From Aquifex aeolicus VF5 (GTDB lineage: Bacteria > Aquificota > Aquificia > Aquificales > Aquificaceae): DNA of 32,000 nt. Positions 7,114-24,919 of this stretch are shown in pieces. Where the stretch lies: contig NC_000918.1 in assembly GCF_000008625.1 (NCBI RefSeq), positions 330,001-362,000 of the forward strand. The letters are read 5' to 3'. The position numbers and the translations under genes are program-made. Each line of letters opens with the position of its first letter. The first letter of the stretch is position 1. The notes beneath the pieces were generated by a model. That model had not been told where the DNA came from. It worked only from the letters and a program-made list of their open reading frames with translations, and did no database searches.

Positions 7114-8085
7114 TTACCACTGAGGAACGATTTTCTTCTTTCCACTGAGGAACTTATCCACCGCTAGGGCCGCTTTACATCCCATTGCCGCGGCAACTAC
7201 CGCCTGCTTTACCTCGTTACAGAGCACGTCTCCCGCCGCAAAAACTCCCGGAACGGAAGTCATCATCTCCTCGTTCACCACTATACAATCCCCCTCCGTC
7301 ATCTCAACCTGACCCATTAAGAAATCAACGGATGGCTTCGTTCCCCCGAGAAATATGAACACACCGTTCACCTCTAAAAGCTTTTCCTCTTTCTTTTCGA
7401 GATCCTTGAGTTTTATTCCCTTAACCACCTGATCTCCAACTATTTCGATGGGTCTGTGTCTAAGGAGTATTTCAACGTTGGGGAGTTTTTCAAAGTGTTC
7501 TATTACCTCGGGAGGTGCTTTTATCTTGCTTCCGGGAACAACGAAGAAAACTTTATTTGCAAACCTCGCTATAAATTCCGCCTCTTCTATGGCGTAGTCG
7601 TCGTCACCGATGACCGCAACGGGCTGGTCTTTAAAGAATGCGGCGTCACAAACTCCGCAGTAAGAAACTCCCCTTCCGAGAAACTCCTCCTCTCCCTTGA
7701 ACTTATTAGCCCTTTCCATAGCACCTGAAGCAACTATTATGGTTTTGCCCCTGAACTCCCTTCCGTCTATCGTGTAAACTTTTTTAGGATCGCTGTTTAA
7801 ATCCGTAGCTATCACTTTTCCCCTTACGAATTCAGCTCCGAAGCTCTTCGCCTGTTCTCTCATAATCTTTAAGAGCTCGTATCCCGAAAGCGGACCCGGA
7901 ACGCCTGGGTAGTTTTCTATCTTCTGGGTAACCCCGAGGGCTCCGTCAGCTTCCGCTCTATATAAAACCAGCGTTTTCCAGCCAGCACGTGCCGTGTATA
8001 TGGCTGCAGTCGTTCCCGCAGGTCCCGCACCTATTATTATCACGTCGTAAACTTTATCGGGTTGTTGCATCAGGCTTACAGCCAT
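7114..8085 (-). CDS. trxB: Thioredoxin reductase
   Basis: FAD motif VIIIGAGPAGTTAAIYTARAG, redox-active CGVCDAAFF (CxxC), distal GVFAAGDV. SD AAGGAGG upstream. Confidence 0.9.
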   Translation of the reverse strand: MAVSLMQQPDKVYDVIIIGAGPAGTTAAIYTARAGWKTLVLYRAEADGALGVTQKIENYPGVPGPLSGYELLKIMREQAKSFGAEFVRGKVIATDLNSDPKKVYTIDGREFRGKTIIVASGAMERANKFKGEEEFLGRGVSYCGVCDAAFFKDQPVAVIGDDDYAIEEAEFIARFANKVFFVVPGSKIKAPPEVIEHFEKLPNVEILLRHRPIEIVGDQVVKGIKLKDLEKKEEKLLEVNGVFIFLGGTKPSVDFLMGQVEMTEGDCIVVNEEMMTSVPGVFAAGDVLCNEVKQAVVAAAMGCKAALAVDKFLSGKKKIVPQW

Positions 8086-9604: not shown

Positions 9605-10221
9605 AATGGAATATTGTATTATTCTTTTTCTGCTGCATTCTGCTTTACATAGAAAGGTAATTTTTCGTATATCTTTCTGTAAAGGTCGAAGGGTCTTCCT
9701 GCTAATTGTCCTATATCCCTGCTCCAAGGAGCTAAAGAAAAAGAAGCTATTTGTTTTACATCTCTTAGATTAAATATTCTAAGTGGTATACGTACAAAAA
9801 CCCCTTTGTCGTGGTAATTTTTATTAGGTCCCGTAAAGTCTGAAGTGTCTGAGTATGTATACCAGAACCCAACTTCAAAACCTTTGACTATTCTTGATAC
9901 TTCTATTCGTACACCTTTATCACCGGCTAGAAATCTACCCGCTTTCACACTAAATAACAGTTGAGGTTTTCTCGTCATATAGTAAGCCGATACGTAGAAA
10001 TCGTAAAAATCCCAATCTTTTCTAATCCCTAAAAACACGTCTGGCTTCCTTTTCCAGACGTAATCTCCCCCTATCCCCAAAGCAAACCTGCTGTCTCCGA
10101 AAAGGTGTAATACATCTCCCTACTTTAAATAATACACATGCATTAAAAATAGGAAAAAAGCAACTACAACTTTGTTATAGTGTAAACAGTTAGCGCTGAC
10201 TGGTATATTATCTGGATTACA
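9077..10221. repeat. Repeat A : resident pgm 5' part / YjbH-like ORF / Wza-like 3' end matched by 17716-18860
   Basis: See repeat A'. Confidence 0.9.
9619..10080 (-). CDS. YjbH/GfcD-like outer-membrane polysaccharide protein, C-terminal-domain-sized ORF (possible gene fragment)
   Basis: 153 aa. GFEVGFWYTYSD...YHDKGVFVRIPL...LAPWSRDIGQ resembles the C-terminal end of the YjbH family. There is no ATG and no signal peptide, and the frame is closed by a stop 14 codons upstream of the TTG. Confidence 0.5.
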   Translation of the reverse strand: MGIGGDYVWKRKPDVFLGIRKDWDFYDFYVSAYYMTRKPQLLFSVKAGRFLAGDKGVRIEVSRIVKGFEVGFWYTYSDTSDFTGPNKNYHDKGVFVRIPLRIFNLRDVKQIASFSLAPWSRDIGQLAGRPFDLYRKIYEKLPFYVKQNAAEKE

Positions 10222-10583
10222 TCACGTATAAGCGGTCTCCACATGGTTGGTATTTTTATCTTCGTGGGTACTATTATTGCATCACCAGGCTCGAGCTTGT
10301 AATTCAGAATATCGTTATAAGCCCATCCCCAAATGAACCTTTTGCGTTCAGAATCCCATTCTATAAGACTTTTTCCGCTTTCCTGAGATATTGCTATTCC
10401 ATTTGCCTTGATTATGAATACGTTGTCTACGTCGGCATCTCTTGTAAAACCTCCGCTTAAAGCTATGTAATCCTTTACCTTCAGACCGGGTTTGTAAAGA
10501 ATTGCTGACGGATTCTGTACCTCTCCAAATACAAGTACAGCGGAAGGTTTTCTCGGCACGTAAATCATATCTCCATCTTCCAA
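10164..10583 (-). CDS. C-terminal SLBB-domain segment of the Wza/KpsD-like exporter (same frame as the upstream ORF, separated by one TAG)
   Basis: DGDMIYVPRK...VFGEVQNPSAILYKPG is an SLBB-type repeat. 10584-10613 is open and in frame with the 10614-10616 TAG that ends the 725-aa ORF. Confidence 0.6.
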   Translation of the reverse strand: MEDGDMIYVPRKPSAVLVFGEVQNPSAILYKPGLKVKDYIALSGGFTRDADVDNVFIIKANGIAISQESGKSLIEWDSERKRFIWGWAYNDILNYKLEPGDAIIVPTKIKIPTMWRPLIRDVIQIIYQSALTVYTITKL

Positions 10584-10613
10584 GATTATGTTGTAGGGAG
10601 AATTCTTAAGAGC

Positions 10614-12749
10614 CTATATATCGGGGGGTATATTAAGACCTACGAGCCTTCCCGTTACCTGTACTTTTTCCATTTCCTGAAGCAATCTTCTTTTTGCCGC
10701 AAAAGCCTCTTTGTAAGCTTCCTTTTGCTCTTTTGGCAATTCAGCCTGCATGTATCCGGCAATTTCCTTTTCCAGTTGGGCTTTTAGGAAAACCATCGCC
10801 TTGTTTAGCCTTTCTCTTTGCATTTGAGCTATAGATTCTCTCAGTATTACTATTCCCTTAGGATATGCCATGGGTTTGAAGCCACCCGCTGCCTTCAATA
10901 CATCATAAAGGGTAGTCCTTTCACCTATCTTGTAAACACCCGGCTTCCATACTTGACCATAAACGTAAACCTTTGTAACCGTTTCATCCTCTTTGACTCT
11001 TTTTACTACAATTTCCGTTCCTGGTTTTAATTTCACAAAACTCAAAGGAGAAGGATGTTTCCTTAAATCGTTGAGGTAGAAAACTTCAACCTTTTTATCC
11101 TGTTTCACTATAACTTTCAACTCTCCCAACGGGTACTTAAACTTAACCTGTGATATTGCTTCCTCGAGAGTTAATCCCGGTTTATAAGTAACCCAAAGTG
11201 GTCTTTCCACTTCACCGCTTATTCTTACAGGTTCGTATACAAACTCCGGATAAAACACTATCCTGTCCCAGGATTGGAGTTTGATATCTTTGGAACCGTT
11301 CAATACTTCAATAGGTTTGAACTTTATTATTTCCTCCCTTTGAAGCGTTTTCGGATTAAAGCGTTCTATCTCCGCATAATTCAGGTTCGTATCTTTAAGA
11401 ATTAGGTCCTTCTGGAGGATTTCGGAAATGTAACAATCATCGGAACAAGCTACAGGACCTGTATACTTGTAGTATCCTGAAACTAAAACGTAGTTTTTTA
11501 CCAAATTCAGATTTATTTTCTTTCCTACGCTTTGTCCTAATTTAAAGAATATTAACCTATCGTAAGGCTTCAGCTCCATATCTTCCTTTCCTGTAAGAAC
11601 TTTTTCAGGTGAAAAGGCTATGTACTTCGGGATGGATCCTTTGGGATATTGCCTTACGAGAACGGCAAATTTAAGGTTTGTATCCTTAAAGAAAAGATCG
11701 GGGTTCAGGATATCAGATAACTTTAAACCCTCCTTATACTCGTACACTCCCGGGAGTGTTACATAACCTTCTATACTGTACGAGTTTTCAGGTATATCAG
11801 CCGACTTTTTGATCAATACTAAATCCCCGTCTCTTAAATTTTCGTTCATAAAGGCTTTATTGGTTAGGGAATCCTCTATTATCCTCAGTTTTCCATTTTC
11901 GTATCTCTGGAGTATAACCTTGTACTGGTACGAGGAAGGAAGAAGACCACCTGCAAGTTCTATAAGATCCTTGATTGTTTCACCACCTTTTATCTCATAG
12001 ATTGCAGGTCTTTTAACCTCACCAGCTATAGCAACCGTAGGGCCTATTGGTTTAACTAGAATAGTATCACCATCTCTCAACGTAAGATCTATAGGTTTCC
12101 CTTTTATGAATACATCGTACAGGTCTATGTTATAGGTTTTCAAACCAGAAGGTGTTTTCCTTGTAAGGATGATATTCCTCAAAGATCCTGTCTTTTTTAC
12201 ACCACCTGCAATAGAAAGAGCGTCTATTACTGTGTTTACAGCCGTTGCTACGTGAGTTCCCGGTCTGTTTACTTCTCCTGCAACGTAAATCACAAAAGTT
12301 CTGATTTCCCCGACCGTTACCTTTAGATCCAGACCAAGTTCCTGTCTAAGGAGTTCCTCAGTTTCTTTTAACGTAAGTCCCCATACGTTAAAAACACCTA
12401 GGTTAGGAATGGAAATATTTCCTTCTCTGTCAACAATTGTCTTTATTACCGGGGGGATTTCTTGATTAGATGGAAGACCTACTATGTATATGATTACTTC
12501 GTCTCCTGGGCCAAGCTTGTAATTTTCGCTGACGGGAAGGACTAACTTTGATACGTCTAAAGGAGTCATAAAAAACTCGTACCCAAATTGTCTGAGAGGC
12601 GTACTGTTTCTGGAAGAAAACTCCTTTTCTATTTTGGATATCAAATTTTTATACTTTGGAAGTTTCTTAGGTTGAGGTTTATCTTTTGCGTATACAAATA
12701 AAAAAGCCGCAACGAAAATAAGGATAAGTGATCTAAGAAACACTTTCAT
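10614..12749 (-). CDS. Polysaccharide export protein, Wza/KpsD family with multiple SLBB repeats
   Basis: Start at ATG 12749 (MKVFLRSLILIFVAAFLFVYA signal peptide). Poly_export motif YKLGPGDEVIIYIVG...DREGNISIPNLG. Repeated V..GEV.RPG.Y SLBB-like units. Confidence 0.8.
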   Translation of the reverse strand: MKVFLRSLILIFVAAFLFVYAKDKPQPKKLPKYKNLISKIEKEFSSRNSTPLRQFGYEFFMTPLDVSKLVLPVSENYKLGPGDEVIIYIVGLPSNQEIPPVIKTIVDREGNISIPNLGVFNVWGLTLKETEELLRQELGLDLKVTVGEIRTFVIYVAGEVNRPGTHVATAVNTVIDALSIAGGVKKTGSLRNIILTRKTPSGLKTYNIDLYDVFIKGKPIDLTLRDGDTILVKPIGPTVAIAGEVKRPAIYEIKGGETIKDLIELAGGLLPSSYQYKVILQRYENGKLRIIEDSLTNKAFMNENLRDGDLVLIKKSADIPENSYSIEGYVTLPGVYEYKEGLKLSDILNPDLFFKDTNLKFAVLVRQYPKGSIPKYIAFSPEKVLTGKEDMELKPYDRLIFFKLGQSVGKKINLNLVKNYVLVSGYYKYTGPVACSDDCYISEILQKDLILKDTNLNYAEIERFNPKTLQREEIIKFKPIEVLNGSKDIKLQSWDRIVFYPEFVYEPVRISGEVERPLWVTYKPGLTLEEAISQVKFKYPLGELKVIVKQDKKVEVFYLNDLRKHPSPLSFVKLKPGTEIVVKRVKEDETVTKVYVYGQVWKPGVYKIGERTTLYDVLKAAGGFKPMAYPKGIVILRESIAQMQRERLNKAMVFLKAQLEKEIAGYMQAELPKEQKEAYKEAFAAKRRLLQEMEKVQVTGRLVGLNIPPDI

Positions 12750-13920
12750 TTTCCTGTCCCTCCACATTCTCACTGTATCTCTTCCTTGCATTATTTAACC
12801 ACTCCTTAAAGAATGCTAAGAATATACCTGTAAAAAGACCGCTTACAAAGGAAACAGCTAAGATTAAAGCTTTTTTAGGCTTTGCCGGTTTTTGAGGAAT
12901 ATAAGGAGGATCTATGATCTGGAATGATACGGATTCCTTCACTTCGTTTGCCTTTGCGATCTGATACTGCTGGAATAATGTGGAAAGCAGGTTTTTGAGT
13001 ACCTCAAATTGCCACTGGAGTTTCTGGTAATTGAATTGGTACTCAGGTAAATTTCTATTCATTCCCTTAGCTATTGGTATATTCCTTTCTAAGTTTTGCT
13101 TTAAATTACCAGGAATATCAAATTTATCGTTGTTCTCGTAATTTAAACTTTCTTTGAAGATTTTACTTATAAACCTCTCATCAACAACTATCGGTACTTC
13201 TTTTATCTCACCCTTTATAAACTTGAGGTAAACCTCTTCCAGAACCTTTTGTTTATTGAGCACTTCCTTTATCTGGTTTTCAAGAAATATCCTGTGCTTC
13301 TTGGCTAAAGACCAGCTTTTTTCGTTCAGTATCTTATAAGCCTCTTCCAAGGAAACCTGTGCAATTTTATACGCCATATGCGGATCTTCTGGAAATTCTA
13401 CTGAAAAAGTTATAGTTCCTGTTTTTTTATTTGAGGAAACAGAAATTAAGTCTTCTAACAATTCGGCTCCATCTAGAATTGTGGGAATATCTTCTGGTTC
13501 AAGATCTTGTCTCCAAGTATTCCTACTTTCGTCCCATAAATCCTTGAACAAGACAGGCATAAGGTTTAATTTCTCAATCACTCTTTCCCTTAAAGTTCTG
13601 CTTTTTAAAACGGACTCAACGGTTACTTTATCTGCAACAGATGGTAGGGGTACTGGAAGACCTTCCAGTATTGAGGGTAAATTTGTTTTTTCTCCGCCTA
13701 TAGGAAATATCACAGCTTCGGTTTTGTAAACCGGAGGAGCTATGAATACATATGCAACCGCACCTGCAATAAAGATAACTAGAGTAAGCAGTATAACCCT
13801 GAACCTTTTTTTAAGTACAACCCAGAGCTCATATAGATCTATTTCATCTTCCTCGTACATCGGATATCCTAACTTCTCACTCTTCCGATCAATACTCTTT
13901 TCTTCCATACTGGATATCAT
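12733..13920 (-). CDS. Wzz-type polysaccharide co-polymerase / chain-length determinant (no kinase domain)
   Basis: N-terminal EIDLYELWVVLKKRFRVILLTLVIFIAGAVAYVF (Wzz motif plus TM1), a long coiled periplasmic region, and C-terminal TM ALILAVSFVSGLFTGIFLAFF. The start is uncertain (ATG at 13920, 13908 or 13860). The track start at 14034 would overlap the divergent MNT gene. Confidence 0.75.
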   Translation of the reverse strand: MISSMEEKSIDRKSEKLGYPMYEEDEIDLYELWVVLKKRFRVILLTLVIFIAGAVAYVFIAPPVYKTEAVIFPIGGEKTNLPSILEGLPVPLPSVADKVTVESVLKSRTLRERVIEKLNLMPVLFKDLWDESRNTWRQDLEPEDIPTILDGAELLEDLISVSSNKKTGTITFSVEFPEDPHMAYKIAQVSLEEAYKILNEKSWSLAKKHRIFLENQIKEVLNKQKVLEEVYLKFIKGEIKEVPIVVDERFISKIFKESLNYENNDKFDIPGNLKQNLERNIPIAKGMNRNLPEYQFNYQKLQWQFEVLKNLLSTLFQQYQIAKANEVKESVSFQIIDPPYIPQKPAKPKKALILAVSFVSGLFTGIFLAFFKEWLNNARKRYSENVEGQENESVS

Positions 13921-13966
13921 TTTATATGATGCTAAATTGAGTGTCCGTATAAATTTTAAACTTACA

Positions 13967-14278
13967 ATGGCAAAGATTGAAACGATAGAAGATCTCAGGA
14001 AATATATAGAAGATTTTTTCAAACGGAGAAACAAGAAGGTAAAGGTTATACTTTTTGGTTCCAGAGCACGGGGAACGCATACATCATATTCAGATGTGGA
14101 TATTGCTATTTTGTCGGATGAAAATATAGATAACGATCTGATACTACTTAGAGAAGAAATAGAAAACTCATTGTTGCCTCAGAAAGTTGATATAGTCGGC
14201 TTTTCAAAACTTGAGGAGAGTTTTAAAGAAGAAATCCTAAAAGAGGGAAAAGTGTGGATAGACTTAACAAAATCCTAA
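13967..14278 (+). CDS. Minimal nucleotidyltransferase (MNT/MntA-type antitoxin)
   Basis: Start at ATG 13967 (MAKIETIEDL). GSRARGTHTSYSDVDIAIL is the G-S-x9-D-x-D pol-beta-fold NTase motif. About 103 aa. Confidence 0.85.
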   Translation: MAKIETIEDLRKYIEDFFKRRNKKVKVILFGSRARGTHTSYSDVDIAILSDENIDNDLILLREEIENSLLPQKVDIVGFSKLEESFKEEILKEGKVWIDLTKS

Positions 14279-14664
14279 AAGACTTTTCTTCAGCGGTAAA
14301 TAGATTAGAAAAAGCGATAAATAAAGCAAAAGAATTTAAAGGATCAGAGGAGTACTCCTTTTACAGAGATTCTGCCATACAAAGATTCGAGTTCACGTTT
14401 GAATTAATGTGGAAAGTACTGAAAGTATTTCTCGAAAAAGAAGGAATACTCTGTAGATCGCCTAGAAGTTGTATAAGAGCTTTCTTTAACGCAGGCTATT
14501 CCACAGAAGAAGAAACAAGACTTATGCTAAAAATGGTAGAGGATAGAAACTTAACCGTACACACTTACAACGAAAAGCTTGCTGAGGAAATATTCAGCAG
14601 ACTTGAGAGCTACGTAAAGATCTTTCGAAGCATTTATGAAACAATTGAGGATGGATCACATTAG
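14254..14664 (+). CDS. HEPN-domain protein, HI0074-like NTase substrate-binding family (HepT-type toxin)
   Basis: 136 aa. R-x4-H motif in EDRNLTVHTY. Overlaps the MNT gene by 25 nt, the usual MNT-HEPN operon layout. Confidence 0.85.
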   Translation: MDRLNKILKDFSSAVNRLEKAINKAKEFKGSEEYSFYRDSAIQRFEFTFELMWKVLKVFLEKEGILCRSPRSCIRAFFNAGYSTEEETRLMLKMVEDRNLTVHTYNEKLAEEIFSRLESYVKIFRSIYETIEDGSH

Positions 14665-14672
14665 ATATGAGT

Positions 14673-14717
14673 CAAGTATTGTTAACCTCAATTTACGAAA
14701 TACTTGTTGCTTTTTTT
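14673..14717 (+). terminator. Weak candidate intrinsic terminator after the HEPN gene
   Basis: Inverted repeat caagtatt (14673-14680) / aatacttg (14699-14706), followed by a T-run at 14711-14717. The stem is AT-rich and the loop is long. Confidence 0.25.
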
Positions 14718-14765
14718 ATTTGCTTTAAAGTACAATATTTGAAAGCAAGGGATTAGTTTACCTGA

Positions 14766-14995
14766 ATGAATGATGAGCTTTTTAAAAGCTACACACTGCA
14801 GGATTATATAAGAATGGTTGGAGAAGCTGTAAGTAAAGCTCTTGAAAATAAAGACAGCTTTATCATATTCTTCGGTAAGGAAATCTGAGGAGGACTTCCG
14901 ACATAGATGTGGGAATTTACTGCGGAAAGAAACTTGACCTTTGACTTACGTGAAGATACTGGAAGAGATTGAAGCTCTGCTGATGCTGAGAAAAA
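14766..14995 (+). pseudogene. Decayed second minimal-nucleotidyltransferase gene (at least 2 frameshifts)
   Basis: Frame 1 reads MNDELFKSYTLQDYIRMVGEAVSKALENKDSFIIFFGKEI*. The next frame continues RRTSDIDVGIYCGKKLDL*. A third frame reads LTYVKILEEIEALLML. Spliced together these resemble an FG-x-SDIDVGI NTase core. Confidence 0.4.
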
Positions 14996-15063
14996 AAAAG
15001 AAAAGATTTATAAGGCAATAAAGAAAGTGCGGGTAGCTTTTAGAAAAGAGATAAAGGGAAAAA

Positions 15064-16395
15064 GTGATTATGGGAATTGAGGAAAAACTTACTACTGCTT
15101 CTAAGATTAAAAGCCTTCTTAACATTCGGGAACAGGAAAAGGTTTTAGATGCATTAATAAGATCCTCTTTTATTAATATATTAGCAAGAGGTTTTGGCTA
15201 TTTAAAACACGTAACAATTGCAGTTGTTCTAGGGTTTAACCTTCAAACTGATGCTTTTTTTATGGCATTATCACTTATAGGTATATTTCTTATTTTTGCG
15301 GATGTTTTTGATTCCATAGGTGTTCCAAATTTGGTTGACGCAAGATTAAAAAGTCAGGAGGAGTTTAAGAAATTATCTGGATTGCTTTTTACCTTTACAC
15401 TAATATTAACTTTTTTAACAGGATTCTTAGCAATAGGTTTCTATCCATTCGTTCTTAAAATTCCTGTAGGATTTAATATGGAAGCTTTATCATATACGCA
15501 AGTGGCATATTTTTTACTACTTCCATACTTGCTTTTTAATTTTCTATTTCACCACTTTGGTGCTGTTCTCAGAAGTGTAAGAAGATTTACAGTTTACTTT
15601 GTAGGGGAATTTTTATTTTCCTTTTTTAGTTTTTTATTTATTTTCTTAGGTTTGATTTTTTATAATAAATGGCTTGTTTTACCATTGTCAATTTCATTTG
15701 CACAAATAATTGCCACACTTTATATGTTTTATGTAGGAAGAGAATTTATTCATATAAATTTTTTTCTAAATCAGACTACGAAAAAAATTTTAAATCATTT
15801 TTTTTATCTTTCAGCGTTATATGGAGTGCTTCATTTGTTTATTGTTATTGATAGAGCATTTGGTTCATTGCTTGGAGAGAAATCAATTTCCGCTATTCAT
15901 TACGGTTTAATAGTTGCCAGTATTCCAAGAGGAATAATAAGGCTTGAAAATATCGCTATAACTTCACTTTCTGAATCAAAAGGAGACATAAAAAAGTTGA
16001 ATTTTTATATAAAAAGAATTTTAATTGTTTCAGGAATATCATTATTATTTTTCTTTGTTTTTGCTGAAATTATTGTTAAACTTCTTTTTGGATATGGTGC
16101 TTTCACTCAAATGGATTTAATTCTTACAGTAGAAGCAACCAGATTTTACTCTTTAAGCCTTCCTTTTATGTTTTTATGGCCAATTTTATACAGAGTTTTC
16201 CAGATAAAGGAAAATTTGAAACCAGTGTTTTTTATAGCCATATCAGGAATAACTGTAAACGGTATTTTAAATTATTTTTTTGTGCTAAAACTTAATTATG
16301 GTATAAAAGGTATAGCACTTGGAACTTTAGGAGCGTATATTGTAATATGTAGTTTAAGTTATATAATACTTTATTATAAATACAGGAGAAATTAA
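15064..16395 (+). CDS. MOP-superfamily polysaccharide/lipid-linked-oligosaccharide flippase (MurJ/MviN/Wzx-like)
   Basis: 443 aa and very hydrophobic (about 12 TM segments). The N-terminal ARGFGYLKHVTIAVVLGFNLQTDAFFMALS resembles the MurJ/MviN signature. AT-rich. GTG at 15064 or ATG at 15070. Confidence 0.75.
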   Translation: MIMGIEEKLTTASKIKSLLNIREQEKVLDALIRSSFINILARGFGYLKHVTIAVVLGFNLQTDAFFMALSLIGIFLIFADVFDSIGVPNLVDARLKSQEEFKKLSGLLFTFTLILTFLTGFLAIGFYPFVLKIPVGFNMEALSYTQVAYFLLLPYLLFNFLFHHFGAVLRSVRRFTVYFVGEFLFSFFSFLFIFLGLIFYNKWLVLPLSISFAQIIATLYMFYVGREFIHINFFLNQTTKKILNHFFYLSALYGVLHLFIVIDRAFGSLLGEKSISAIHYGLIVASIPRGIIRLENIAITSLSESKGDIKKLNFYIKRILIVSGISLLFFFVFAEIIVKLLFGYGAFTQMDLILTVEATRFYSLSLPFMFLWPILYRVFQIKENLKPVFFIAISGITVNGILNYFFVLKLNYGIKGIALGTLGAYIVICSLSYIILYYKYRRN

Positions 16396-16866
16396 ATGGT
16401 AAAAAGTGATTATACAAGATGCCCAATTTGTGAAACTCAGAAGAATGTGAACCAGTATATAGACACTTACATTTCTCCTTTTAATAATCAGGAATATAAA
16501 CTCTACGAATGCTCAAATTGTAAACTCCAGTGGTGGGAACCATTAAAAATTATTCCTGAATTTTATGAAAATGAAGTTTTTGACTCCTATATTTCCTTCC
16601 ATGAAGGTATTAGAAGTAGAATAGGCAAAAATCATGAAGCTTTTTTCAAGTATGTCCCTAAAAATGTAAAAGGGAAATTGTTAGATATAGGGTGTGGAGA
16701 TGGAGTTTTTCTTAGAGAAGCTCAAAAATATGGATTTGAAGTGTGGGGAATAGATTTTGATAAAAAAAGTGTTGAAACTGCTAAAAAAAACTTAGGGGTT
16801 AAAACTATTTATGCGATGAGTCTTGAAGAATTTCATAAATTTGCTAAAGATAATAATATAAGATAA
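16396..16866 (+). CDS. Class I SAM-dependent methyltransferase with N-terminal zinc ribbon, C-terminally truncated
   Basis: CPIC...CSNC zinc ribbon, motif I LLDIGCGDGVF, post-I GIDFD. The ORF stops about 45 residues after motif I with motifs II/III missing, exactly where the murB-like repeat begins. Confidence 0.7.
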   Translation: MVKSDYTRCPICETQKNVNQYIDTYISPFNNQEYKLYECSNCKLQWWEPLKIIPEFYENEVFDSYISFHEGIRSRIGKNHEAFFKYVPKNVKGKLLDIGCGDGVFLREAQKYGFEVWGIDFDKKSVETAKKNLGVKTIYAMSLEEFHKFAKDNNIR

Positions 16867-16904
16867 AGAGTATTAAAGTAAAAGAAATTAATGAAAAATT
16901 TTTA

Positions 16905-17546
16905 GTGGAGGCATTTGCTGGAACTCCTTTAAAGGATTTAATAAGGTTTAGTGTAAAGGAAAATATAAGGAATTTCTACAAACTTCTCGGTTTTCCGGCA
17001 AGTGTCGGGGGAGCGGTCAGTATGAACGCGGGAGCTTTCGGAGTTGAGATATCGGATTTTTTAAAAGAAGTTTACTTCGTGGATTGGGAGGGGAAACTCC
17101 AAAAAGCAAAAAGGGATGAACTGAGTTTCTCTTACAGAAAGTCACCTTTTCCGGAACTTGGAATAGTTTACAAAGTGGTTTTTGAGCTTGGAAAAAGTGA
17201 AGAAAATATACTTCCCAAGTACGAAAAAATAAGAAGAATAAGGAAAGAAAAACAGCCTATAAACTTTCCAACCAGCGGTTCTACCTTCAAAAATCCTAAA
17301 GGTAATTTTGCTGGAAAACTTCTGGAAGAAGTAAGTTTAAAAGGTTTTAGACTTAAAAACGTGGGATTTTCCGAAAAACACGCTAACTTCCTTGTGAATT
17401 ACGGAGGGGGAACATTTTCGGAAGTGGTGGATTTGATAAACATTGCAAAAGAAAGGGTTTACGAAAACTTCGGTATAGTATTGGAGGAGGAGGTAAAACT
17501 GATTGAGAGTAGTGGTTCTGATGGGTGGAAGGTCCTCGGAGCGTGA
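16905..17546 (+). pseudogene. murB: murB fragment (lacks about 74 N-terminal codons)
   Basis: The 213-aa ORF is about 93% identical to residues about 85-297 of the intact MurB at 23194-24087. The FAD-binding N-terminus is absent. Confidence 0.8.
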
Positions 17547-17718
17547 AATTTCCCTGAAAACGGGAAAGGCGGTTGCCAACGCATTGAAAGAACTGGGGCA
17601 CGAAGTTTACGAGCTTGACCTTGACAAGGAACTTCCCTGTAAACTCCTCGAGATAAAGCCCGATAAAGTATTTATAGCCCTTCACGGAAGGTACGGGGAA
17701 GACGGAACCGTGCAGGGA
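17503..17718 (+). pseudogene. ddl: ddl fragment (first 72 codons), fused to antisense pgm sequence
   Basis: MRVVVLMGGRSSEREISLKTGKAVANALKELGH...HGRYGEDGTVQG matches Ddl at 24044 with 2 aa changes, then diverges abruptly at 17719. Confidence 0.85.
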
Positions 17719-18243
17719 ATCGTGAACTATAAGCGCCTCCCTTTCTTTGAATAAATCCATATCGAAGAATTCCCTTATTTTTTCTACGTACTTTTTTCTG
17801 ACCTCCTGGTATTCGGGTTCGAATTCTCTTACTTCTACGCTTTCTAAATCCTTAACCTTTTCTTCAACGCTCTTTACAAATTCCGGAGTTGCAGAACCCC
17901 CGAAGCTTTCTTTGATCTTGTACCCGTTGTAAGCCGGTGGATTGTGAGAAGCCGTAATCATAACCCCGTTTTCATATCCGAGATACTTTACAGCGAAAGA
18001 AACCATAGGCGTAGTACAGGCACTTCCAACTAGTTTCGCCTCAAGTCCCTCACTTCTAAATACGTCGTAAACAGCTTTAGCAAAATCTTCAGAACGAAAA
18101 CGCCAGTCGTACCCGACTATTACACGTTTTACCCCTTTTTCCTTTAAAACTTCCGCGTGCGCCTTTGCAACTCTCCTTACATTATCAAAGTTAAACTCTT
18201 CCGCTATCCTTGCCCTCCACCCATCCGTCCCGAACTTAATCAT
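17719..18243 (-). pseudogene. Phosphohexomutase fragment (first 175 codons only)
   Basis: MIKFGTDGWR...TASHNPPAYNGYK... is identical or near-identical to the 5' part of the gene at 8228-9604. The Mg and sugar loops are missing. The track ORF 17383-18366 is a read-through chimera. Confidence 0.85.
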
Positions 18244-18257
18244 AATGGAATATTGTA

Positions 18258-18719
18258 TTATTCTTTTTCTGCTGCATTCTGCTTTACATAGAAAGGTAAT
18301 TTTTCGTATATCTTTCTGTAAAGGTCGAAGGGTCTTCCTGCTAATTGTCCTATATCCCTGCTCCAAGGAGCTAAAGAAAAAGAAGCTATTTGTTTTACAT
18401 CTCTTAGATTAAATATTCTAAGTGGTATACGTACAAAAACCCCTTTGTCGTGGTAATTTTTATTAGGTCCCGTAAAGTCTGAAGTGTCTGAGTATGTATA
18501 CCAGAACCCAACTTCAAAACCTTTGACTATTCTTGATACTTCTATTCGTACACCTTTATCACCGACCAGAAATCTACCTGCTTTCACACTAAACAACAGT
18601 TGTGGTTTTTGAGTCATGTAATAAGCCGATACGTAAAAATCGTAAAAATCCCAGTCTTTTCTAACACCTAAAAACACGTCTGGCTTCCTTTTCCAGACGT
18701 AATCTCCCCCTATCCCCAA
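18258..18719 (-). CDS. Second copy of the YjbH/GfcD-like ORF
   Basis: 153 aa, with 3 conservative differences (I/V, R/Q, A/V) from the copy at 9619-10080. The frame is intact. Confidence 0.4.
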   Translation of the reverse strand: MGIGGDYVWKRKPDVFLGVRKDWDFYDFYVSAYYMTQKPQLLFSVKAGRFLVGDKGVRIEVSRIVKGFEVGFWYTYSDTSDFTGPNKNYHDKGVFVRIPLRIFNLRDVKQIASFSLAPWSRDIGQLAGRPFDLYRKIYEKLPFYVKQNAAEKE

Positions 18720-18802
18720 AGCAAACCTGCTGTCTCCGAAAAGGTGTAATACATCTCCCTACTTTAAATAATACACATGCATTAAAAATAGGAAAAAAGC
18801 AA

Positions 18803-18860
18803 CTACAACTTTGTTATAGTGTAAACAGTAAGTGCTGACTGGTATATTATCTGTATTACA
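18803..18860 (-). pseudogene. Tail (last 19 codons) of a second Wza-like gene copy
   Basis: rc translation VIQIIYQSALTVYTITKL* equals the end of the ORF at 10164-10583. Homology stops at 18860. Confidence 0.6.
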
Positions 18861-19375
18861 AACCAAAAACATATCAAAAACTTGCAAATACGCTCGGAAT
18901 ATCAAGAAACACATTCTATAAATGGCTAAAAAGATATGAAAAAGATGGACTTGCAGGTCTTTACGATAAACCTAAAGCTCCAGTAAACACAAGAAAACCA
19001 ACCATAAGAAACAAATGCAAAGAAAGGGTGGATAAAGCTTTATATAACCTTAGACCTTAAGAGGAGAAAGTAGTGGGGCTTGAGGTAACGGATGATAGAG
19101 TACATGAGGGACAGGTTGATAAGGCAGATAAGGAGGGGAAGAGGAAGTGGAAGGAGAAAGTGGTGTATGGCAACAGATGGCTTATTGAGAGCTTCTTTTC
19201 AACCTTCGAGCGATGGTTTGGAGAGTATGTAGTGAGCAAAAGGCTTGGTAACATAAGGAATGAGCATGTGTTTAAAGTTGGGATAATGATCATGATGATG
19301 AGGTCAGGTGGTATGAGAGATGGCTGTGGTGGAGTTGATGTGGACGAGAAAATAATCAGGTCAGGGAGATCATAA
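18860..19375 (+). mobile_element. Degraded IS transposase: HTH N-terminal fragment plus DDE C-terminal fragment (IS4/IS5-like Y-R-E-K region)
   Basis: 18860-19060 reads KPKTYQKLANTLGISRNTFYKWLKRYEKDGLAGLYDKPKAP...* with no start codon. 19073-19375 contains YGNRWLIESFFSTFERWFG (Y-x2-R-x3-E-x6-(K/R) block). Both pieces are in the same frame, and the total is far shorter than a full transposase. Confidence 0.6.
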
Positions 19376-19476
19376 CAGATTTATTGGACAGAGCATGGAA
19401 TTTATAACCCTCTGGGTGATTTTTAACTGAATACCTATAAATTCAAATGATTATAAATATTATGGAGCGATTGATT

Positions 19477-20571
19477 ATGAACAGTATCTACATTGACGGA
19501 CTATTTTATAAAGGCTCCGGGATAGGAAGATATTATGAGTTTTCGATTCAAGAATTAAGCCAATATGCAATCATTTATATATATGTTCCAATGAAATTTA
19601 AAAACGAATTTTATCAACAATTCGGCAATAATGATAAAATTGTTCCAATATCCACCAAATATGAAAAATTTTCCTTAAAGGGACTCCTTATCCAATCTAA
19701 AATTTTGAAAAGTCTTGAAAATAAAGTTTATTTGTTTTTCTTTCCTCACATAAATCTACCTCTTTATATATCACAAAATACTGTTGTAACCGTTCATGAT
19801 CTAAGACCTTTCACAGAGTATTGGGATAGAGGAGAATTCAAAAAACTTATTATTAAAAAGCTTTTTTTTGATAGAGCAATTAAGTATTCAAAGGCTATAA
19901 TATCTATATCAAAAACAACTAAAAACGACTTACTAAAATTTTATTCCGAAGTTCAAAATAAGATTGTGGTTATTTATGAAACATTTAGTATTAATAAAAA
20001 ATCAACAGAGACAAAACAAAATATTGTTGGGGATTATCTGCTCTATGTAGGGCAGTTTAAAAAACATAAAAATTTAGATAGATTGCTTAAAGCTTTTTCT
20101 ATGATCAAAAATAAAATTAAATGCAAGCTTGTAATAGCAGGAAAAAAAGATAATATAGATATCTATAATTCTATCAAAAGCCTCAATCTTGGTGATCGTG
20201 TTGTGGTTATAAAAAATCCTTCCGATGGCGAGTTGATAAATTTATATAAAAATGCTAAATTTTTCATTTCTCCTTCTTTATATGAAGGTTTTGGTTTACC
20301 ACCCCTTGAAAGTTTAAATTATGATGTCCCTGTAATATTGTCTGATATACCAGTATTTAGGGAAATATACGAAGATATAGCAATTTATTTTAATCCTTTT
20401 TCAGAAGAAAATATTGCTGAAAAGATAATTTTTGCACTTTCCAATTATAATAGCATAAAACAAAAAACTGTATCTGAAAAAGATAAAATTTTCAATAAAT
20501 TTGAAAAAAGAAAAATAGTAAAGCAGTATCTGGAGCTTTTTAACAAAATTATAAAAGGTGAATTAGCGTGA
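19477..20571 (+). CDS. GT4-family (group 1) glycosyltransferase
   Basis: MNSIYIDG...GIGRY start, then SPSLYEGFGLPPLESL (E-x7-E region). GGAG lies 9 nt upstream of the ATG at 19477; the track ORF starts at 19447. AT-rich. Confidence 0.8.
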   Translation: MNSIYIDGLFYKGSGIGRYYEFSIQELSQYAIIYIYVPMKFKNEFYQQFGNNDKIVPISTKYEKFSLKGLLIQSKILKSLENKVYLFFFPHINLPLYISQNTVVTVHDLRPFTEYWDRGEFKKLIIKKLFFDRAIKYSKAIISISKTTKNDLLKFYSEVQNKIVVIYETFSINKKSTETKQNIVGDYLLYVGQFKKHKNLDRLLKAFSMIKNKIKCKLVIAGKKDNIDIYNSIKSLNLGDRVVVIKNPSDGELINLYKNAKFFISPSLYEGFGLPPLESLNYDVPVILSDIPVFREIYEDIAIYFNPFSEENIAEKIIFALSNYNSIKQKTVSEKDKIFNKFEKRKIVKQYLELFNKIIKGELA

Positions 20572-21674
20572 AAGTCTTACATCTTGGGAAGCTATGTCCT
20601 CCGAATGAAGGAGGAATAGAAGTTTTTTCATACGACTTACTTGAATACTTAAACTCAAAAGGTATAAAAGCAGATTTACTATGTTTTGGAAATAGAACAT
20701 TTAATGACGCTTATAGAGGTTTTAACTTTTTTTCCTGCAAAATGAATGTCAAACTAAATTCGGCTCCACTTTCCTATGACTTTGTAAAAACTTTTAAGAA
20801 AATAGAAAAAAACTATGACATAATACACGTTCATTCTCCTAATCCATTGGCAGAAATTTTGTCTCTTTTTTCTCATAAAAAAGTGGTGGCTCACTGGCAC
20901 TCAGATATTGTCAGGCAAAAATTTACATACTTTTTTTATAAACCATTTCAACATATGTATTTGAAAAAAGCAATTAGAATAATCTGTACATCTCCACAAT
21001 ATTTACAAACTTCAAAGCAATTAGAAGGTTTTAGGAATAAAGCAGTAGTAATTCCCTTAGGCTTAAATCCCAAAAGATTGATGAGCGACTACGTAGATGA
21101 AAAATTTAAAGATTTTATTGAGTTGAAAAATAAAGGAAGAAAAATAGTTCTCTCAATAGGAAGACTGGTAGAGTATAAAGGGTATAAATACTTAATAGAA
21201 GCTGCAAAATATATAAATAACAACATCTCAATAGTTATCGCGGGTTCGGGACCTTTATTTCAATCATTAGAAGAAAAAATCGAAACATTGAATTTAAAGG
21301 AAAAGGTTTTTCTATTCGGAAGAATTAATAATGTGAGCCTTTACATGAAAAATTGTGATGTATTTTGTCTACCTTCTATCACCAGAAACGAAGCTTTTGG
21401 TCTGGTATTAGTAGAAGCATTATACTTTGGTAAACCTCTTATAACTACAGACGTTGAAGGCTCCGGTATAAGCTATGTTAATCAAAACGGTATAACAGGT
21501 TTAGTAGTAAAACCAAAAGACCCAAAAGCACTGGCAGAAGCCATTAATAAAATTTTAAAAAATGAAAATTTATATAAACAATTTAGTGAAAATGCTAAAA
21601 AACGTTTCAAAGAATTTGAGATATCAAATATAGGAGATAAAATATTAAATTTGTACGAGGAGGTTTTAAAATGA
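20568..21674 (+). CDS. GT4-family (group 1) glycosyltransferase
   Basis: MKVLHLGK...GGIE start, then PSITRNEAFGLVLVEALYFGKPLITTDV. GTGA overlap with the preceding GT gene. Confidence 0.8.
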   Translation: MKVLHLGKLCPPNEGGIEVFSYDLLEYLNSKGIKADLLCFGNRTFNDAYRGFNFFSCKMNVKLNSAPLSYDFVKTFKKIEKNYDIIHVHSPNPLAEILSLFSHKKVVAHWHSDIVRQKFTYFFYKPFQHMYLKKAIRIICTSPQYLQTSKQLEGFRNKAVVIPLGLNPKRLMSDYVDEKFKDFIELKNKGRKIVLSIGRLVEYKGYKYLIEAAKYINNNISIVIAGSGPLFQSLEEKIETLNLKEKVFLFGRINNVSLYMKNCDVFCLPSITRNEAFGLVLVEALYFGKPLITTDVEGSGISYVNQNGITGLVVKPKDPKALAEAINKILKNENLYKQFSENAKKRFKEFEISNIGDKILNLYEEVLK

Positions 21675-21737
21675 TTATCCGATATCATGCTCCTTTGGGA
21701 CTTGGACTTGCAGTGGTGTAACTGATCTAAGTCCATT

Positions 21738-22151
21738 ATGAATGGGAAGGCCGGTGCAAGCAGTAAAGGTGGAAATTTTGTGTATACAATAATTCGCAAA
21801 GCTAAGGCAGGAGAACCGCTAAGGGTGGTTGATGATATATACATGTCTCCTACCTATACCTTAGATGCTGCAAAAGAGATATGGAAAATTTTACTTGAAA
21901 ATAAACCTTACGGTATATACCACGTTACAAACTCAGGATACTGCTCATGGTATGAGTTTGCTGTCAAGATACTCGAATACTCTGGATTGAAAACGGATAT
22001 AAAACCTGTAAGACATACAGAATTTAAGACTAAAGCAAATAGACCACTGTGGAGCCCTTTAGCAAGTAAAAGGGGAATAAAACTGAGAAACTGGGAAGAA
22101 GCTTTAAAGGATTTTATAAATGCTATTTCCATTAATAACCTTTCTTATTAG
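21738..22151 (+). pseudogene. rmlD: dTDP-4-dehydrorhamnose reductase (RmlD) C-terminal remnant
   Basis: GGNFVYTIIRKAKAGEPLRVVDDIYMSPTYTLDAA, YHVTNSGYCSWYEFA and ANRPLWSPL match the distal half of RmlD. The Rossmann N-terminal half (about 150 aa) is absent and a stop lies 5 codons upstream of the ATG. Confidence 0.65.
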
Positions 22152-23193
22152 CTTCTTTCTCTGTTTTCTATTCATAAAGTACATTAACCTAAATCTCTTC
22201 CACGATACTCAAAAAGGTGTTCAGAAATTTCACCACAGGCCTACACCCAGAATAGGCGGCCTTGCTATTTATTTATCCGTTCTTTTAGTATCAGTAATCT
22301 TCATTCTTTTAAATAAGCCTTTTTCAAAAGAGTTTTTTCTTTTTATAATGTCTGCCTTCCCCGTTTTTTTCAGCGGACTTCTTGAGGATATAACAAAAAA
22401 AGTTTCCCCGAAATGGAGATTACTTATAGGATTTATTTCGGGAATACTTGCGTTTTATTTGATTTCCGCAAAAGTAACAAGAGTAGATATTCCTTTTGTA
22501 GATAGCCTCCTTTCCATACCTCTTATTTCTCTTTTATTTACTGCTTTTGCTCTGGCAGGTGTTTCCCATGCTTTTAACATAATTGACGGTTTTAACGGTC
22601 TTGCCTCGGGTGTTGCAATGCTCGTTTTTGGAGCTTACGCTTACGTGTCTTTTTTACATAATGATCTTTTCCTCGTTTACTTAAATCTTCTTCTTATCGC
22701 TGCTACCTTAGGATTCTTTCTGTGGAATTATCCCTTCGGGCTTATATTCCTCGGGGACGGAGGAGCTTACTTTTTAGGTTTCTGTGCGGGAGCCATAGGA
22801 GCTATTCTAGTAAATAAATATCCTGACATTTCTCCCTGGTTTCCCATGTTGCTTGTTATTTATCCTGTATGGGAGACTTTATTTTCCATATACAGAAGAA
22901 AATTTCTTAAAGATTATCCACCACATATGCCCGATGCACTTCATTTCCATCAATTGCTTTACAGGAGACTCCTTAAATTTACTCTAGGTTCAAACATAGA
23001 ACCTTTTAAAAGGAATTCATACACTTCACCCTTCCTGTGGGTTATGGAACTTATATGTTTAGTTCCAGCGGTTCTATTTTGGGATAATACTCCTATCTTG
23101 ATGCTTTTCACATTTGCTTTCATAGTTTTTTATACATGGCTTTACTTCAGAATAGTCAAGTTTAAAACTCCGAAAATCTTTAGAATTAAATAA
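22120..23193 (+). CDS. Polyprenyl-phosphate N-acetylhexosamine-1-phosphate transferase (WecA/MraY family, initiating transferase)
   Basis: 357 aa with about 10-11 TM segments, HRPTPRIGGLAIY and NIIDGFNGLASG motifs. The stop is immediately followed by the murB ATG. Confidence 0.8.
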   Translation: MLFPLITFLISFFLCFLFIKYINLNLFHDTQKGVQKFHHRPTPRIGGLAIYLSVLLVSVIFILLNKPFSKEFFLFIMSAFPVFFSGLLEDITKKVSPKWRLLIGFISGILAFYLISAKVTRVDIPFVDSLLSIPLISLLFTAFALAGVSHAFNIIDGFNGLASGVAMLVFGAYAYVSFLHNDLFLVYLNLLLIAATLGFFLWNYPFGLIFLGDGGAYFLGFCAGAIGAILVNKYPDISPWFPMLLVIYPVWETLFSIYRRKFLKDYPPHMPDALHFHQLLYRRLLKFTLGSNIEPFKRNSYTSPFLWVMELICLVPAVLFWDNTPILMLFTFAFIVFYTWLYFRIVKFKTPKIFRIK

Positions 23194-24087
23194 ATGCTCT
23201 TCCTAAAGAACGTTCCCCTTCAGAACCTTACGACTATAAAAATAGGGGGAAGGGTATCCTTTTACGCAGAGCCTTCCGATCTAAAGGAAATTTCCCTATG
23301 TATTGATTTTTCAAAATCCCGAGACATTCCTCTTTTTGTTTTGGGTAACGGTTCTAATACTATTTTCGGTGACGTAAGAGGGCTCGTTGTAAATTTAAAA
23401 AACTTAAAAGGTTTTAAAGTAAAAGAAATTAAAGGGAAATTTTTTGTAGAAGCTTTTTCCGGAACGCCTTTAAAGGATTTAATAAGGTTTAGTGTAAAGG
23501 AAAATGTAAAGAGTTTTTACAAACTTCTCGGTTTTCCGGCAAGTGTCGGGGGAGCGGTTAGTATGAACGCCGGGGCTTTTGGGGTTGAGATATCGGATTT
23601 TTTAAAGGAAGTTTACTTCGTAGATTGGGAGGGGAAACTCCAAAAAGCAAAAAGGGATGAACTGAATTTTTCTTACAGAAAATCGCCTTTTCCAAAACTT
23701 GGAATAGTTTTCAAAGTAGTTTTTGAGTTTGAAAGAAGTAAAGAAAATATACTTCCCAAGTACGAAAAAATAAGAAGAATAAGGAAAGAAAAGCAACCTA
23801 TAAACCTTCCAACCAGCGGTTCTACCTTCAAAAATCCGGAGGGTAATTTCGCGGGAAAGCTTCTGGAAAAAGCAGGTTTAAAAGGTTTTAGACTTAAAAA
23901 CGTAGGATTTTCCGAAAAACACGCTAACTTCCTTGTAAACTACGGAGGTGGAACTTTTTCGGAAGTGGTAGATTTAATAAATATTGCAAAGGAAAGGGTT
24001 TACGAAAACTTCGGTATAGTATTGGAGGAGGAGGTAAAGCTGATTGAGAGTAGTGGTTCTGATGGGTGGAAGGTCCTCGGAGCGTGA
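23194..24087 (+). CDS. murB: UDP-N-acetylenolpyruvoylglucosamine reductase
   Basis: LTTIKIGG, VLGNGSN, SGSTFKNP, HANFLVN motifs. 297 aa. Confidence 0.9.
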   Translation: MLFLKNVPLQNLTTIKIGGRVSFYAEPSDLKEISLCIDFSKSRDIPLFVLGNGSNTIFGDVRGLVVNLKNLKGFKVKEIKGKFFVEAFSGTPLKDLIRFSVKENVKSFYKLLGFPASVGGAVSMNAGAFGVEISDFLKEVYFVDWEGKLQKAKRDELNFSYRKSPFPKLGIVFKVVFEFERSKENILPKYEKIRRIRKEKQPINLPTSGSTFKNPEGNFAGKLLEKAGLKGFRLKNVGFSEKHANFLVNYGGGTFSEVVDLINIAKERVYENFGIVLEEEVKLIESSGSDGWKVLGA

Positions 24088-24259
24088 AATATCCTTGAAA
24101 ACGGGAAAGGCCGTTGCAAAGGCATTAAGAGAACTGGGGCACGAAGTTTACGAGCTTGACCTTGATAAGGAACTTCCCTGTAAACTCCTCGAAATAAAGC
24201 CCGATAAAGTATTTATAGCCCTTCACGGAAGGTACGGAGAGGACGGAACCGTGCAGGGA
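23414..24259. repeat. Repeat B : resident murB/ddl sequence matched by 16873-17718
   Basis: See repeat B'. Confidence 0.9.
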
Positions 24260-24919
24260 TTGCTGGAGATTTTAGACATACCTTACACGGGTTCGGATAC
24301 GATAGCTTCCGCTGTATCTATAGACAAGGACTTTACAAAGAGAATAGTAAAAAGCCTTGGTATAAACACACCTGACTGGGAAACGTTCATTTCGGAGGGA
24401 GATGTTCTAAATACAGAATGGAATAAATTTCCCGCGGTGGTAAAGCCGGTAAGAGAAGGATCAAGCGTTGGGCTGAAAATAGTGGAAAGTCTTGAAGAAT
24501 TAAAAGAGTACGCCTTAGACCTCCTTAAAAAAACCGAAAGGGTTATGGTTGAGGAATTCGTGGAAGGGAGGGACATGACTGTAGGGATACTGAAAGGGGA
24601 AGCCCTTCCCGTTGTGGAAATAATACCTAAAAAAGGAGTTTACGACTACGAGTGTAAGTACACAAAAGGTATGAGCGAGTACAGAATTTTAAAAGATGAA
24701 AAATTATCTAAAAAACTCCAGGAAATCTCCCTCAAAATTTCTAAATTTCTCTCTTTAAAGGACTTTGCAAGAATTGACTTCAGAGTGACAAAAGAAGGTA
24801 AAATATTTTTCTTAGAGGTAAATACCATACCAGGGATGACTGAACTCAGTCTCCTTCCTATGGCAGCGAAAGAAAAAGGTATGGACTTTAAAAAATTAAT
24901 ATCTATAATTATCACTTAA
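24044..24919 (+). CDS. ddl: D-alanine--D-alanine ligase
   Basis: TTG start 8 nt after GGAGGAGGAGG. Motifs GGRSSEREISL, HGRYGEDGTVQGLLE, ATP-grasp region, LEVNTIPGMT. Confidence 0.9.
   Translation: MRVVVLMGGRSSEREISLKTGKAVAKALRELGHEVYELDLDKELPCKLLEIKPDKVFIALHGRYGEDGTVQGLLEILDIPYTGSDTIASAVSIDKDFTKRIVKSLGINTPDWETFISEGDVLNTEWNKFPAVVKPVREGSSVGLKIVESLEELKEYALDLLKKTERVMVEEFVEGRDMTVGILKGEALPVVEIIPKKGVYDYECKYTKGMSEYRILKDEKLSKKLQEISLKISKFLSLKDFARIDFRVTKEGKIFFLEVNTIPGMTELSLLPMAAKEKGMDFKKLISIIIT

Follow-up and report, generated by a model that had tools for sequence, protein, structure and literature searches.

A two-kilobase scar in the surface-polysaccharide locus of Aquifex aeolicus VF5 as the probable join point of a two-allele tandem duplication

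Capsule and O-antigen switching proceeds by double crossover in conserved genes flanking the variable cluster (e.g., dexB/aliA or galF/gnd), and homology-facilitated illegitimate recombination (HFIR) is known from Acinetobacter, Pseudomonas stutzeri, and Streptococcus pneumoniae. Here, a block of approximately 2 kb in a surface-polysaccharide locus of Aquifex aeolicus VF5 is compared with such systems; it lies at positions 16865–18860 of the window, i.e., the whole stretch of 32,000 bp that was analyzed (contig NC_000918.1, positions 330,001 to 362,000). HFIR during DNA uptake has been described for three naturally competent species and for conjugation in Escherichia coli (PMC3240628), and normally replaces recipient DNA beside the anchor and inserts short segments. 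Merodiploids of S. pneumoniae are made by transformation, the incoming DNA triggering the duplication (Johnston et al. 2013, PMC3784515); they form between long repeats (remnants of the insertion sequence (IS) IS861), comprise 100–900 kb, and are unstable (PMC3784515). In Haemophilus influenzae type b (Hib), the cap locus is tandemly duplicated and carries a 1.2-kb bexA–IS1016 deletion in one copy (PMC6535587); its flanking IS1016 elements mediate the duplication, the units are nearly identical and largely intact, and the copy number affects virulence. Literature searches for the scar itself, for a murB duplicate in Aquifex, and for the genes aq_509–514 returned nothing relevant. The original prediction, which had been made from the sequence and stated that no description of such a scar was known, went too far, as the literature already contains duplication join points at microhomology, transformation merodiploids, and duplicated capsule loci of which one copy carries a deletion (PMC3784515, PMC6535587, PMC3240628).

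Our results indicated that the 2-kb block is probably a fossil, namely the join point left by a tandem duplication with two alleles (merodiploid), which would have arisen by illegitimate recombination between ddl and pgm and would later have been trimmed by two deletions. Self-BLASTN of the whole window, on which the repeat assignments are based, revealed exactly two repeat pairs, both of them direct, and the gene content of the blocks was deduced from Pfam scans and translations. The outer, intact left-flank copy A (9060–10221, minus strand) comprises codons 1 to about 181 of the phosphohexomutase gene pgm (aq_501), a C-terminal YjbH-like fragment, and the 3' end of a Wza-like open reading frame (ORF). 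Its truncated counterpart A' (17698–18860, minus strand), being 96.0% identical over 1163 bp with 45 mismatches, contains pgm codons 1–175, a C-terminal YjbH fragment of 153 aa (YjbH', 18258–18719), and the last approximately 19 codons of Wza'. On the right side, the truncated copy B' (16865–17718, plus strand) encodes murB from codon ~72 to its stop after codon 297 (murB' ORF at 16905–17546) and the first 72 codons of ddl. It matches the outer, intact copy B (23407–24259, plus strand), which lies inside murB (23194–24087, aq_520) and ddl (24044–24919), with 92.0% identity over 854 bp and 67 mismatches. The murB' product had already been deposited separately as a 213-aa 'UDP-N-acetoenolpyruvoylglucosamine reductase' (AAC06751.1/O66799), and exact protein look-ups identified the VF5 proteins FtsZ (aq_525/O66809), MurB (aq_520/O66805), phosphohexomutase (aq_501/O66791), TrxB (aq_500), and MtfB (aq_515). 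The order of the direct repeats is A...B'|A'...B, which is the arrangement expected of a duplication join point. Both flank copies had been predicted with coordinates that proved correct to within about 20 bp, and the proposed topology was supported; a direct duplication or the single-crossover insertion of a circularized copy yields such an order. The three junctions named in advance were likewise found with the character ascribed to each, namely the cut methyltransferase, the ddl|pgm fusion, and the IS remnant at 18860.

At the central junction J2 (17698–17718), the microhomology GAAGACG..CCGTGCAGGGA connects codon 72 of ddl with codon 175 of antisense pgm. The two BLASTN matches overlap by 21 bp (17698–17718), because the parental sequences share imperfect microhomology at this position. 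The scar reads CCGTGCAGGGA and ddl reads CCGTGCAGGGA, while the antisense strand of pgm reads CCGTGCATGGA; in a longer reading of the junction, the scar is GAAGACGGAACCGTGCAGGGAATCG. Since the scar tracks ddl through position 17715 and pgm from position 17719 onwards, the crossover falls within the GGA at 17716–17718. The microhomology is 11 bp long with 10/11 positions matching, and 74 of 3.4 million position pairs between the murB–ddl and pgm–YjbH regions reach at least 10/11 (p = 2.2e-5). The match at the junction thus greatly exceeds what chance would produce, and J2 therefore bears the mark of microhomology-mediated illegitimate recombination. A single novel junction connecting the distal end of a unit to the proximal start at short homology, as found here, is characteristic of a duplication join point. 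As J2 is placed within the coding sequences of ddl and pgm and is free of IS elements, remnants of which were found at J3 only, an IS-mediated duplication of the Hib cap type is not indicated.

The outer borders of the block were interpreted as deletion joints. At J1 (16864–16872), the gene for an S-adenosylmethionine (SAM) methyltransferase is connected at codon ~156 to codon ~72 of murB', so that the enzyme is cut mid-domain at 156 aa, with the stop codon located at 16864–16866. At J3 (18860–18861), the 3' end of Wza' is fused to the interior of a transposase gene. The adjoining debris consists of an IS481/IS630-like transposase helix-turn-helix fragment on the plus strand (18861–19060; Pfam HTH_29/28/23; positions 16–69 of 284 of the NCBIfam profile transpos_IS481), which misses about 15 N-terminal residues, followed by a C-terminal fragment of an IS5-family transposase on the same strand (19073–19375; positions 222–285 of 289 of transpos_IS5_2, E = 3e-11). 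A search for these IS remnants on plasmids (e.g., ece1) gave no match. Logan assemblies of other sequencing runs matched the window with identities of 99.96–100%. Two contigs (L028 from ERR15087784 and L029 from SRR29904084) correspond to window positions 10161/10221–16955 and span J1, two further contigs (L024 from SRR29904084 and L025 from ERR15087784) correspond to 18667/18800–23496 and span J3, and two more (L026 from SRR22575695 and L027 from SRR22575694) end at 23558. The contigs spanning J1 and J3 carry the B'- and A'-specific variants, and the Logan contigs end exactly at 31-mers common to both copies.

Accordingly, an assembly or cloning artefact, whether through chimeric joining in the shotgun assembly of 1998 or through the collapse of strain variants, was assigned a very low probability. 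The circumstance that J2 was not found in any independent data set speaks for it: exact-protein look-ups of the chimeric pgm' ORF and of the ddl' ORF crossing J2 gave no match, and a J2 24-mer is absent from the JGI metagenome contigs as well. However, the unique sequence around J2 is only ~100 bp long and is enclosed by two blocks of shared 31-mers, which explains why no Logan contig with a callable gene could be retrieved across it. Furthermore, the source is the finished genome of an isolate; J1, J3, and the B'/A'-specific variants recur at 99.96–100% identity when three or more further sequencing runs are assembled; and an imperfect microhomology of 10/11 is not long enough for an assembler to misjoin. 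Near J2, the repeats are 8–13% divergent, so that reads are unambiguous there, and a closed chromosome deprived of J2 would be left with two dangling ends; for these reasons, we regard this junction as reliable.

To characterize the divergence of the copies, each fragment was compared with its intact partner. The ratio of non-synonymous to synonymous substitution rates (dN/dS) was 0.12 for murB, 0.06 for ddl, 0.11 for pgm, and 0.08 for YjbH, with synonymous divergence (dS) of 0.31, 0.20, 0.18, and 0.12, respectively, and the ~2 kb of fragments contain 112 substitutions with zero indels or stop codons. B and B' represent sister alleles with a p-distance of 0.079, each being 0.175 distant from the sister-lineage sequence L030, and their branch lengths are equal. 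Polarization of the B/B' changes with L030 and L031 as outgroups placed 20 synonymous and 7 non-synonymous changes on the branch of the truncated murB' (P = 2.4e-7 for ≤7/27 non-synonymous changes under neutrality). These values bear on an old internal duplication, the truncated copies of which would have decayed in place. Although this would be the simplest reading of the repeat topology, it deserves hardly any credence: dN/dS is low in all four fragments, the B' branch is no longer than that of B and mostly synonymous, and so many substitutions accumulated without a single indel or stop codon. As it is impossible that the murB tail (224 codons), the ddl head (72 codons), and the pgm head (175 codons) are all functional, the divergence points to working genes of another Aquifex lineage as its place of origin. 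As judged from the substitution pattern, the scar copies would thus be alleles from a related Aquifex lineage, about 88–92% identical to VF5 at the nucleotide level, that evolved under purifying selection, and the fragments appear to have been truncated recently. In this, the scar copies agree with HFIR or import from a relative, in which the inserted copy is a diverged allele shaped by its function in another genome. The earlier claim that the locus had been exchanged is supported in this respect, as foreign alleles under purifying selection favor exchange over a purely internal duplication.

The divergence between A and A' is unevenly distributed. A tract of 650 bp (17915–18564, corresponding to 9276–9925) and another of 163 bp (18667–18829, corresponding to 10028–10190) are identical between the copies and are flanked by segments that are ~10–13% divergent (P≈3e-10 under uniform divergence). 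This mosaic would fit gene conversion between the repeats or, alternatively, recent shared ancestry in a recombining population. It may also be read as the result of patchy imports, which leads to a different order of events: a tandem duplication within one genome, generated by unequal exchange between sister chromosomes at the same microhomology, would have been followed by imports from a related strain that, through homologous recombination, overwrote all of B and parts of A, leaving the scar with the native pre-import alleles. We consider this scenario unlikely, albeit with a real chance of being correct. It predicts the same topology and microhomology, the identical tracts amid 10–13% divergence resemble imports, and the intact B branch is relatively richer in non-synonymous change. 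On the other hand, more events are needed (at least three tracts of import besides one duplication and two deletions), and the import of B must cover all 854 bp evenly. In addition, DNA from another strain is still required, so that the scenario differs from the preferred two-allele duplication only in the order of events.

Several reading frames within the repeats are themselves noteworthy. The truncated pgm' runs on as a chimeric ORF of 286 aa (17383–18243, minus strand), antisense to ddl' and murB', and retains its full upstream region, which is located within the 650-bp identical tract; judging by this arrangement, the ORF could be transcribed and translated. For the intact gene, the GenBank model of aq_501 (8228–9727, minus strand, 499 aa, TTG start) overlaps the YjbH fragment, and the true start is the ATG at 9604, giving a protein of 458 aa, as backed by homologues and RefSeq. 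The YjbH-like ORF (9619–10080 and 18258–18719, both on the minus strand) covers just positions 522–656 of the 658-position Pfam profile. As the same truncation is present in both repeat copies, the deletion in YjbH is older than the split of the two alleles.

Comparison with related genomes clarified the ancestral state of the locus. In Aquifex pyrophilus (L033), pgm and murB are divergent immediate neighbors separated by a 16-bp spacer, and the same neighborhood with spacers of ~17–24 bp was found in five Aquifex metagenome-assembled genomes (MAGs) or contigs (L001–L004 and L018). Thus, the 13.6 kb that separate pgm from murB in VF5 represent, in their entirety, an inserted island, and the scar repeats the true flanks of this island. 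The contiguity of pgm and murB elsewhere had been singled out beforehand as informative, and its detection in A. pyrophilus and the five MAGs strengthens the case. The sister lineage L030/L031 (~81% nucleotide identity) shares with VF5 a WecA-like family 4 glycosyltransferase (GT4) gene abutting murB, indicating that the island is older than the split of B and B'. We also considered a small duplication of 1.6 kb in an ancestor that lacked the island, with two island insertions taking place afterwards, and rejected it, as A' already contains YjbH and the Wza end of the island. Likewise, the 6.9 kb by which murB and pgm are separated in L009 were rejected as an island at the same site, since they hold housekeeping genes (for NifU, a ThiI-like protein, AroE, a PIN-domain protein, and an RNA ligase). 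Scans of GTDB genomes and metagenomes with pgm revealed no relative above 76–82% protein identity, and at the nucleotide level the genomes found did not exceed ~82% identity, so that donor and recipient tracts outside the repeats are indistinguishable. The far side of pgm differs between species: trxB, a ParB_N/GmrSD_N-like gene (6232–7032), gnd, and zwf are located at 4072–8085 in VF5, and ppa, a SIS-CBS gene, and hfq in A. pyrophilus (L033, 11393–13153). This difference in synteny indicates a second rearrangement bordering pgm.

Within the island, the scar separates two complementary parts that have no gene in common. The part belonging to the first repeat unit (I1, 10222–16864) encodes the Wza-like protein, Wzz, an MNT/HEPN pair, a MurJ-like flippase, and the N-terminal methyltransferase fragment (16396–16866), and is matched at 99.97–100% by L028 and L029. 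The part belonging to the second unit (I2, 19447–23193, plus strand; Pfam and NCBIfam annotation) encodes two family 1 glycosyltransferases (GT1), a C-terminal RmlD fragment, and the WecA-like GT4 abutting murB, and is matched at 100% by L024–L027. The central parts of I1 and I2 are alike in their low GC content of 0.28–0.33, with flanks of 0.42–0.46. A metagenome contig (L032) carries one continuous locus encoding a MurJ-like protein, a full-length methyltransferase of 230 aa, GT9, GT2, GT1, AsnB, EpsG (Wzy-like), GT1, and a WecA-like GT4; its MurJ-like protein is 69% and its WecA-like GT4 52% identical to the VF5 proteins. Because both gene sets reside in one locus there, the two halves in VF5 resemble opposite ends of a single locus architecture, the variable middle of which appears to be occupied by the scar and the IS debris.

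The resemblance of I1 and I2 to two halves of one locus and the IS remnants abutting one end of the block would also be compatible with a pre-formed 2-kb fragment, possibly mobilized together with the adjacent IS elements, that was inserted as a unit into the middle of a single-copy island. Such an insertion is improbable. A genome or a circle must still have acquired the ddl|pgm joint beforehand; J3 truncates the IS copies and is thus a deletion joint and not an IS end; and no terminal inverted repeats or target duplications were found around 16865–19375. Moreover, the 3' half of the methyltransferase gene and the 5' half of the RmlD gene are gone, so that deletions happened regardless. Features of a site-specific island or integrative element were also sought. 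Scans around the island detected no tRNA and no Rfam match, no integrase domain was found by Pfam in any ORF of the 8–25 kb region, and the repeat scan revealed no att-like repeats, the only long direct repeats being the copies of gene fragments. The window therefore lacks the integrase, the tRNA or att target, and the att repeats by which such elements are recognized.

Based on these results, the following course of events is proposed for the merodiploid origin of the block. The topology and the microhomology show that the joint was made by illegitimate recombination at 11 bp shared between ddl and antisense pgm, and the duplicated segment would have comprised ~14–15 kb or more, reaching from pgm codon 175 across the whole polysaccharide island to ddl codon 72. 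As indicated indirectly by the substitution pattern, the repeat units would have come from different genomes, one of them carrying alleles of a related lineage. Most likely, a long donor fragment, either linear or circularized, was taken up, and it may have been fixed by homologous recombination in one flank and the microhomology joint at the other end, in an HFIR-like manner or by Campbell insertion of a circle. Subsequently, one deletion would have removed the region from the middle of the methyltransferase gene to codon ~72 of murB' (J1), and another the region from the 3' end of Wza' into an IS (J3), leaving one non-redundant gene set with export and flippase genes from unit 1 and glycosyltransferases from unit 2. 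Finally, gene conversion or recent shared ancestry would account for the identity of the 650-bp and 163-bp tracts. The topology alone cannot separate a Campbell-type circle, HFIR, and duplication with allele replacement. The scar itself is probably without function.

Several points weigh against this interpretation. I1 (10222–16864) and the sequence following the scar (18861–23406) share no sequence according to self-BLASTN, and the two units thus do not display the same interior; this would be explained by the two later deletions, L032 combining both gene sets in one locus. Both deletions are deduced from the anatomy of the junctions. J2 was seen in the finished VF5 genome only. The search for murB' homologues found no lineage that is nearer to B' than B is, so that either unit may be the foreign one. 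The branch of the intact murB carries 13 non-synonymous and 15 synonymous changes, i.e., slightly more non-synonymous change than that of the fragment, although the difference is not significant (P = 0.16). Moreover, the same end state could be reached by a duplication within one genome combined with imported alleles.

Compared to the systems introduced above, the Aquifex locus shares individual features with each of them. Its A...B'|A'...B order, the single distal-to-proximal joint, and the occurrence of every boundary gene in a complete and a truncated form correspond to a classical merodiploid novel joint. Unlike the pneumococcal merodiploids, however, the Aquifex joint is an 11-bp microhomology in two coding genes, the alleles are 8–13% apart, and a trimmed remnant of 2 kb is all that is left. 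As in HFIR, foreign DNA from a diverged relative appears to have been joined by homology at one end and by microhomology at the other, but the illegitimate joint is located on the far side of the anchor homology, resulting in duplicated flanks, and the homologous crossover point is not locatable. Similar to Hib cap, a polysaccharide locus was tandemly duplicated, the deletion in one unit truncates an export gene beside an IS, and the units are non-equivalent; in contrast to Hib cap, the join point lacks an IS, the units differ as alleles, and each of them has lost its greater part by deletion. As in capsule switching, housekeeping genes flanking a low-GC variable polysaccharide cluster provide the homology for exchange between strains. 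However, switching is a clean replacement that leaves no duplicated flanks, whereas in Aquifex one side was resolved illegitimately and the alleles of both flanks were kept. The mechanism is ordinary, and the locus is a new example of a known rearrangement that reveals no new mechanism.

Regarding the other genes of the window, the Wza-like export gene (10164–12791, minus strand) is split by an in-frame stop codon (10614–10616) into ORFs of 725 aa and 139 aa in the same frame. The stop is real, as these two pieces (called as 711 aa and 134 aa) recur in independent Logan contigs, and the gene may be a pseudogene or may be read through. The MNT/HEPN-type pair (13967–14664, plus strand), consisting of a nucleotidyltransferase and a NTase_sub_bind/HepT-like protein, is located between the divergent export and flippase operons and is likely a toxin–antitoxin system. 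The MurJ/MviN-like flippase (15070–16395, plus strand; 441 aa) is encoded by DNA of 28–29% GC and scores far below the NCBIfam MurJ cutoff (108 vs. 235 bits); its best homologues, being 60–69% identical, originate from other thermophile lineages (Balnearium, Thermodesulfovibrio, and Thermodesulfobacterium) and suggest a transfer across phyla. In the methyltransferase (16396–16866, plus strand), residues 1–51, which include two Cys-x-x-Cys pairs, share 67% identity with the enzyme of L032 (L032 1641–2333). The SAM-binding domains downstream of these residues are unrelated between VF5 and L032, which points to domain shuffling at this position. The RmlD (dTDP-4-dehydrorhamnose reductase) fragment (21738–22151, plus strand) covers profile positions 154–285 of 287, lacks the N-terminal half, and marks another joint left by deletion, which lies near 21700 in the interval from the second GT1 gene to the WecA-like one. 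Outside the island, the MoaC ORF (27943–28707, plus strand) encodes 254 aa, of which residues 4–136 only form the MoaC domain, the C-terminal ~115 residues being without a Pfam match; its length is kept in A. pyrophilus and L030.

The finding accounts for several odd annotations in VF5: a 'murB' is entered a second time (O66799), the gene model of pgm is too long, and the genes for YjbH, the methyltransferase, and RmlD are fragmentary. A more far-reaching interpretation, to which only a small probability was attributed, regards the scar as a direct record of natural DNA uptake between hyperthermophilic Aquifex lineages, with one homologous and one microhomology joint, and its flank repeats as a recombination switch still in operation. 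If so, recombination of A with A' would delete the export and flippase genes, recombination of B' with B would delete the glycosyltransferase genes, and either event would result in surface-polysaccharide variants within the population. For A. aeolicus VF5, which has long served as a model hyperthermophile and is surrounded by few sampled close relatives, the scar provides sequence-level evidence that chromosomal DNA was exchanged at a surface-polysaccharide locus with a ~92%-identical lineage. It also documents the history of this locus, an island wedged into the short spacer (16–23 bp) between pgm and murB, and preserves alleles of an unsampled Aquifex lineage.

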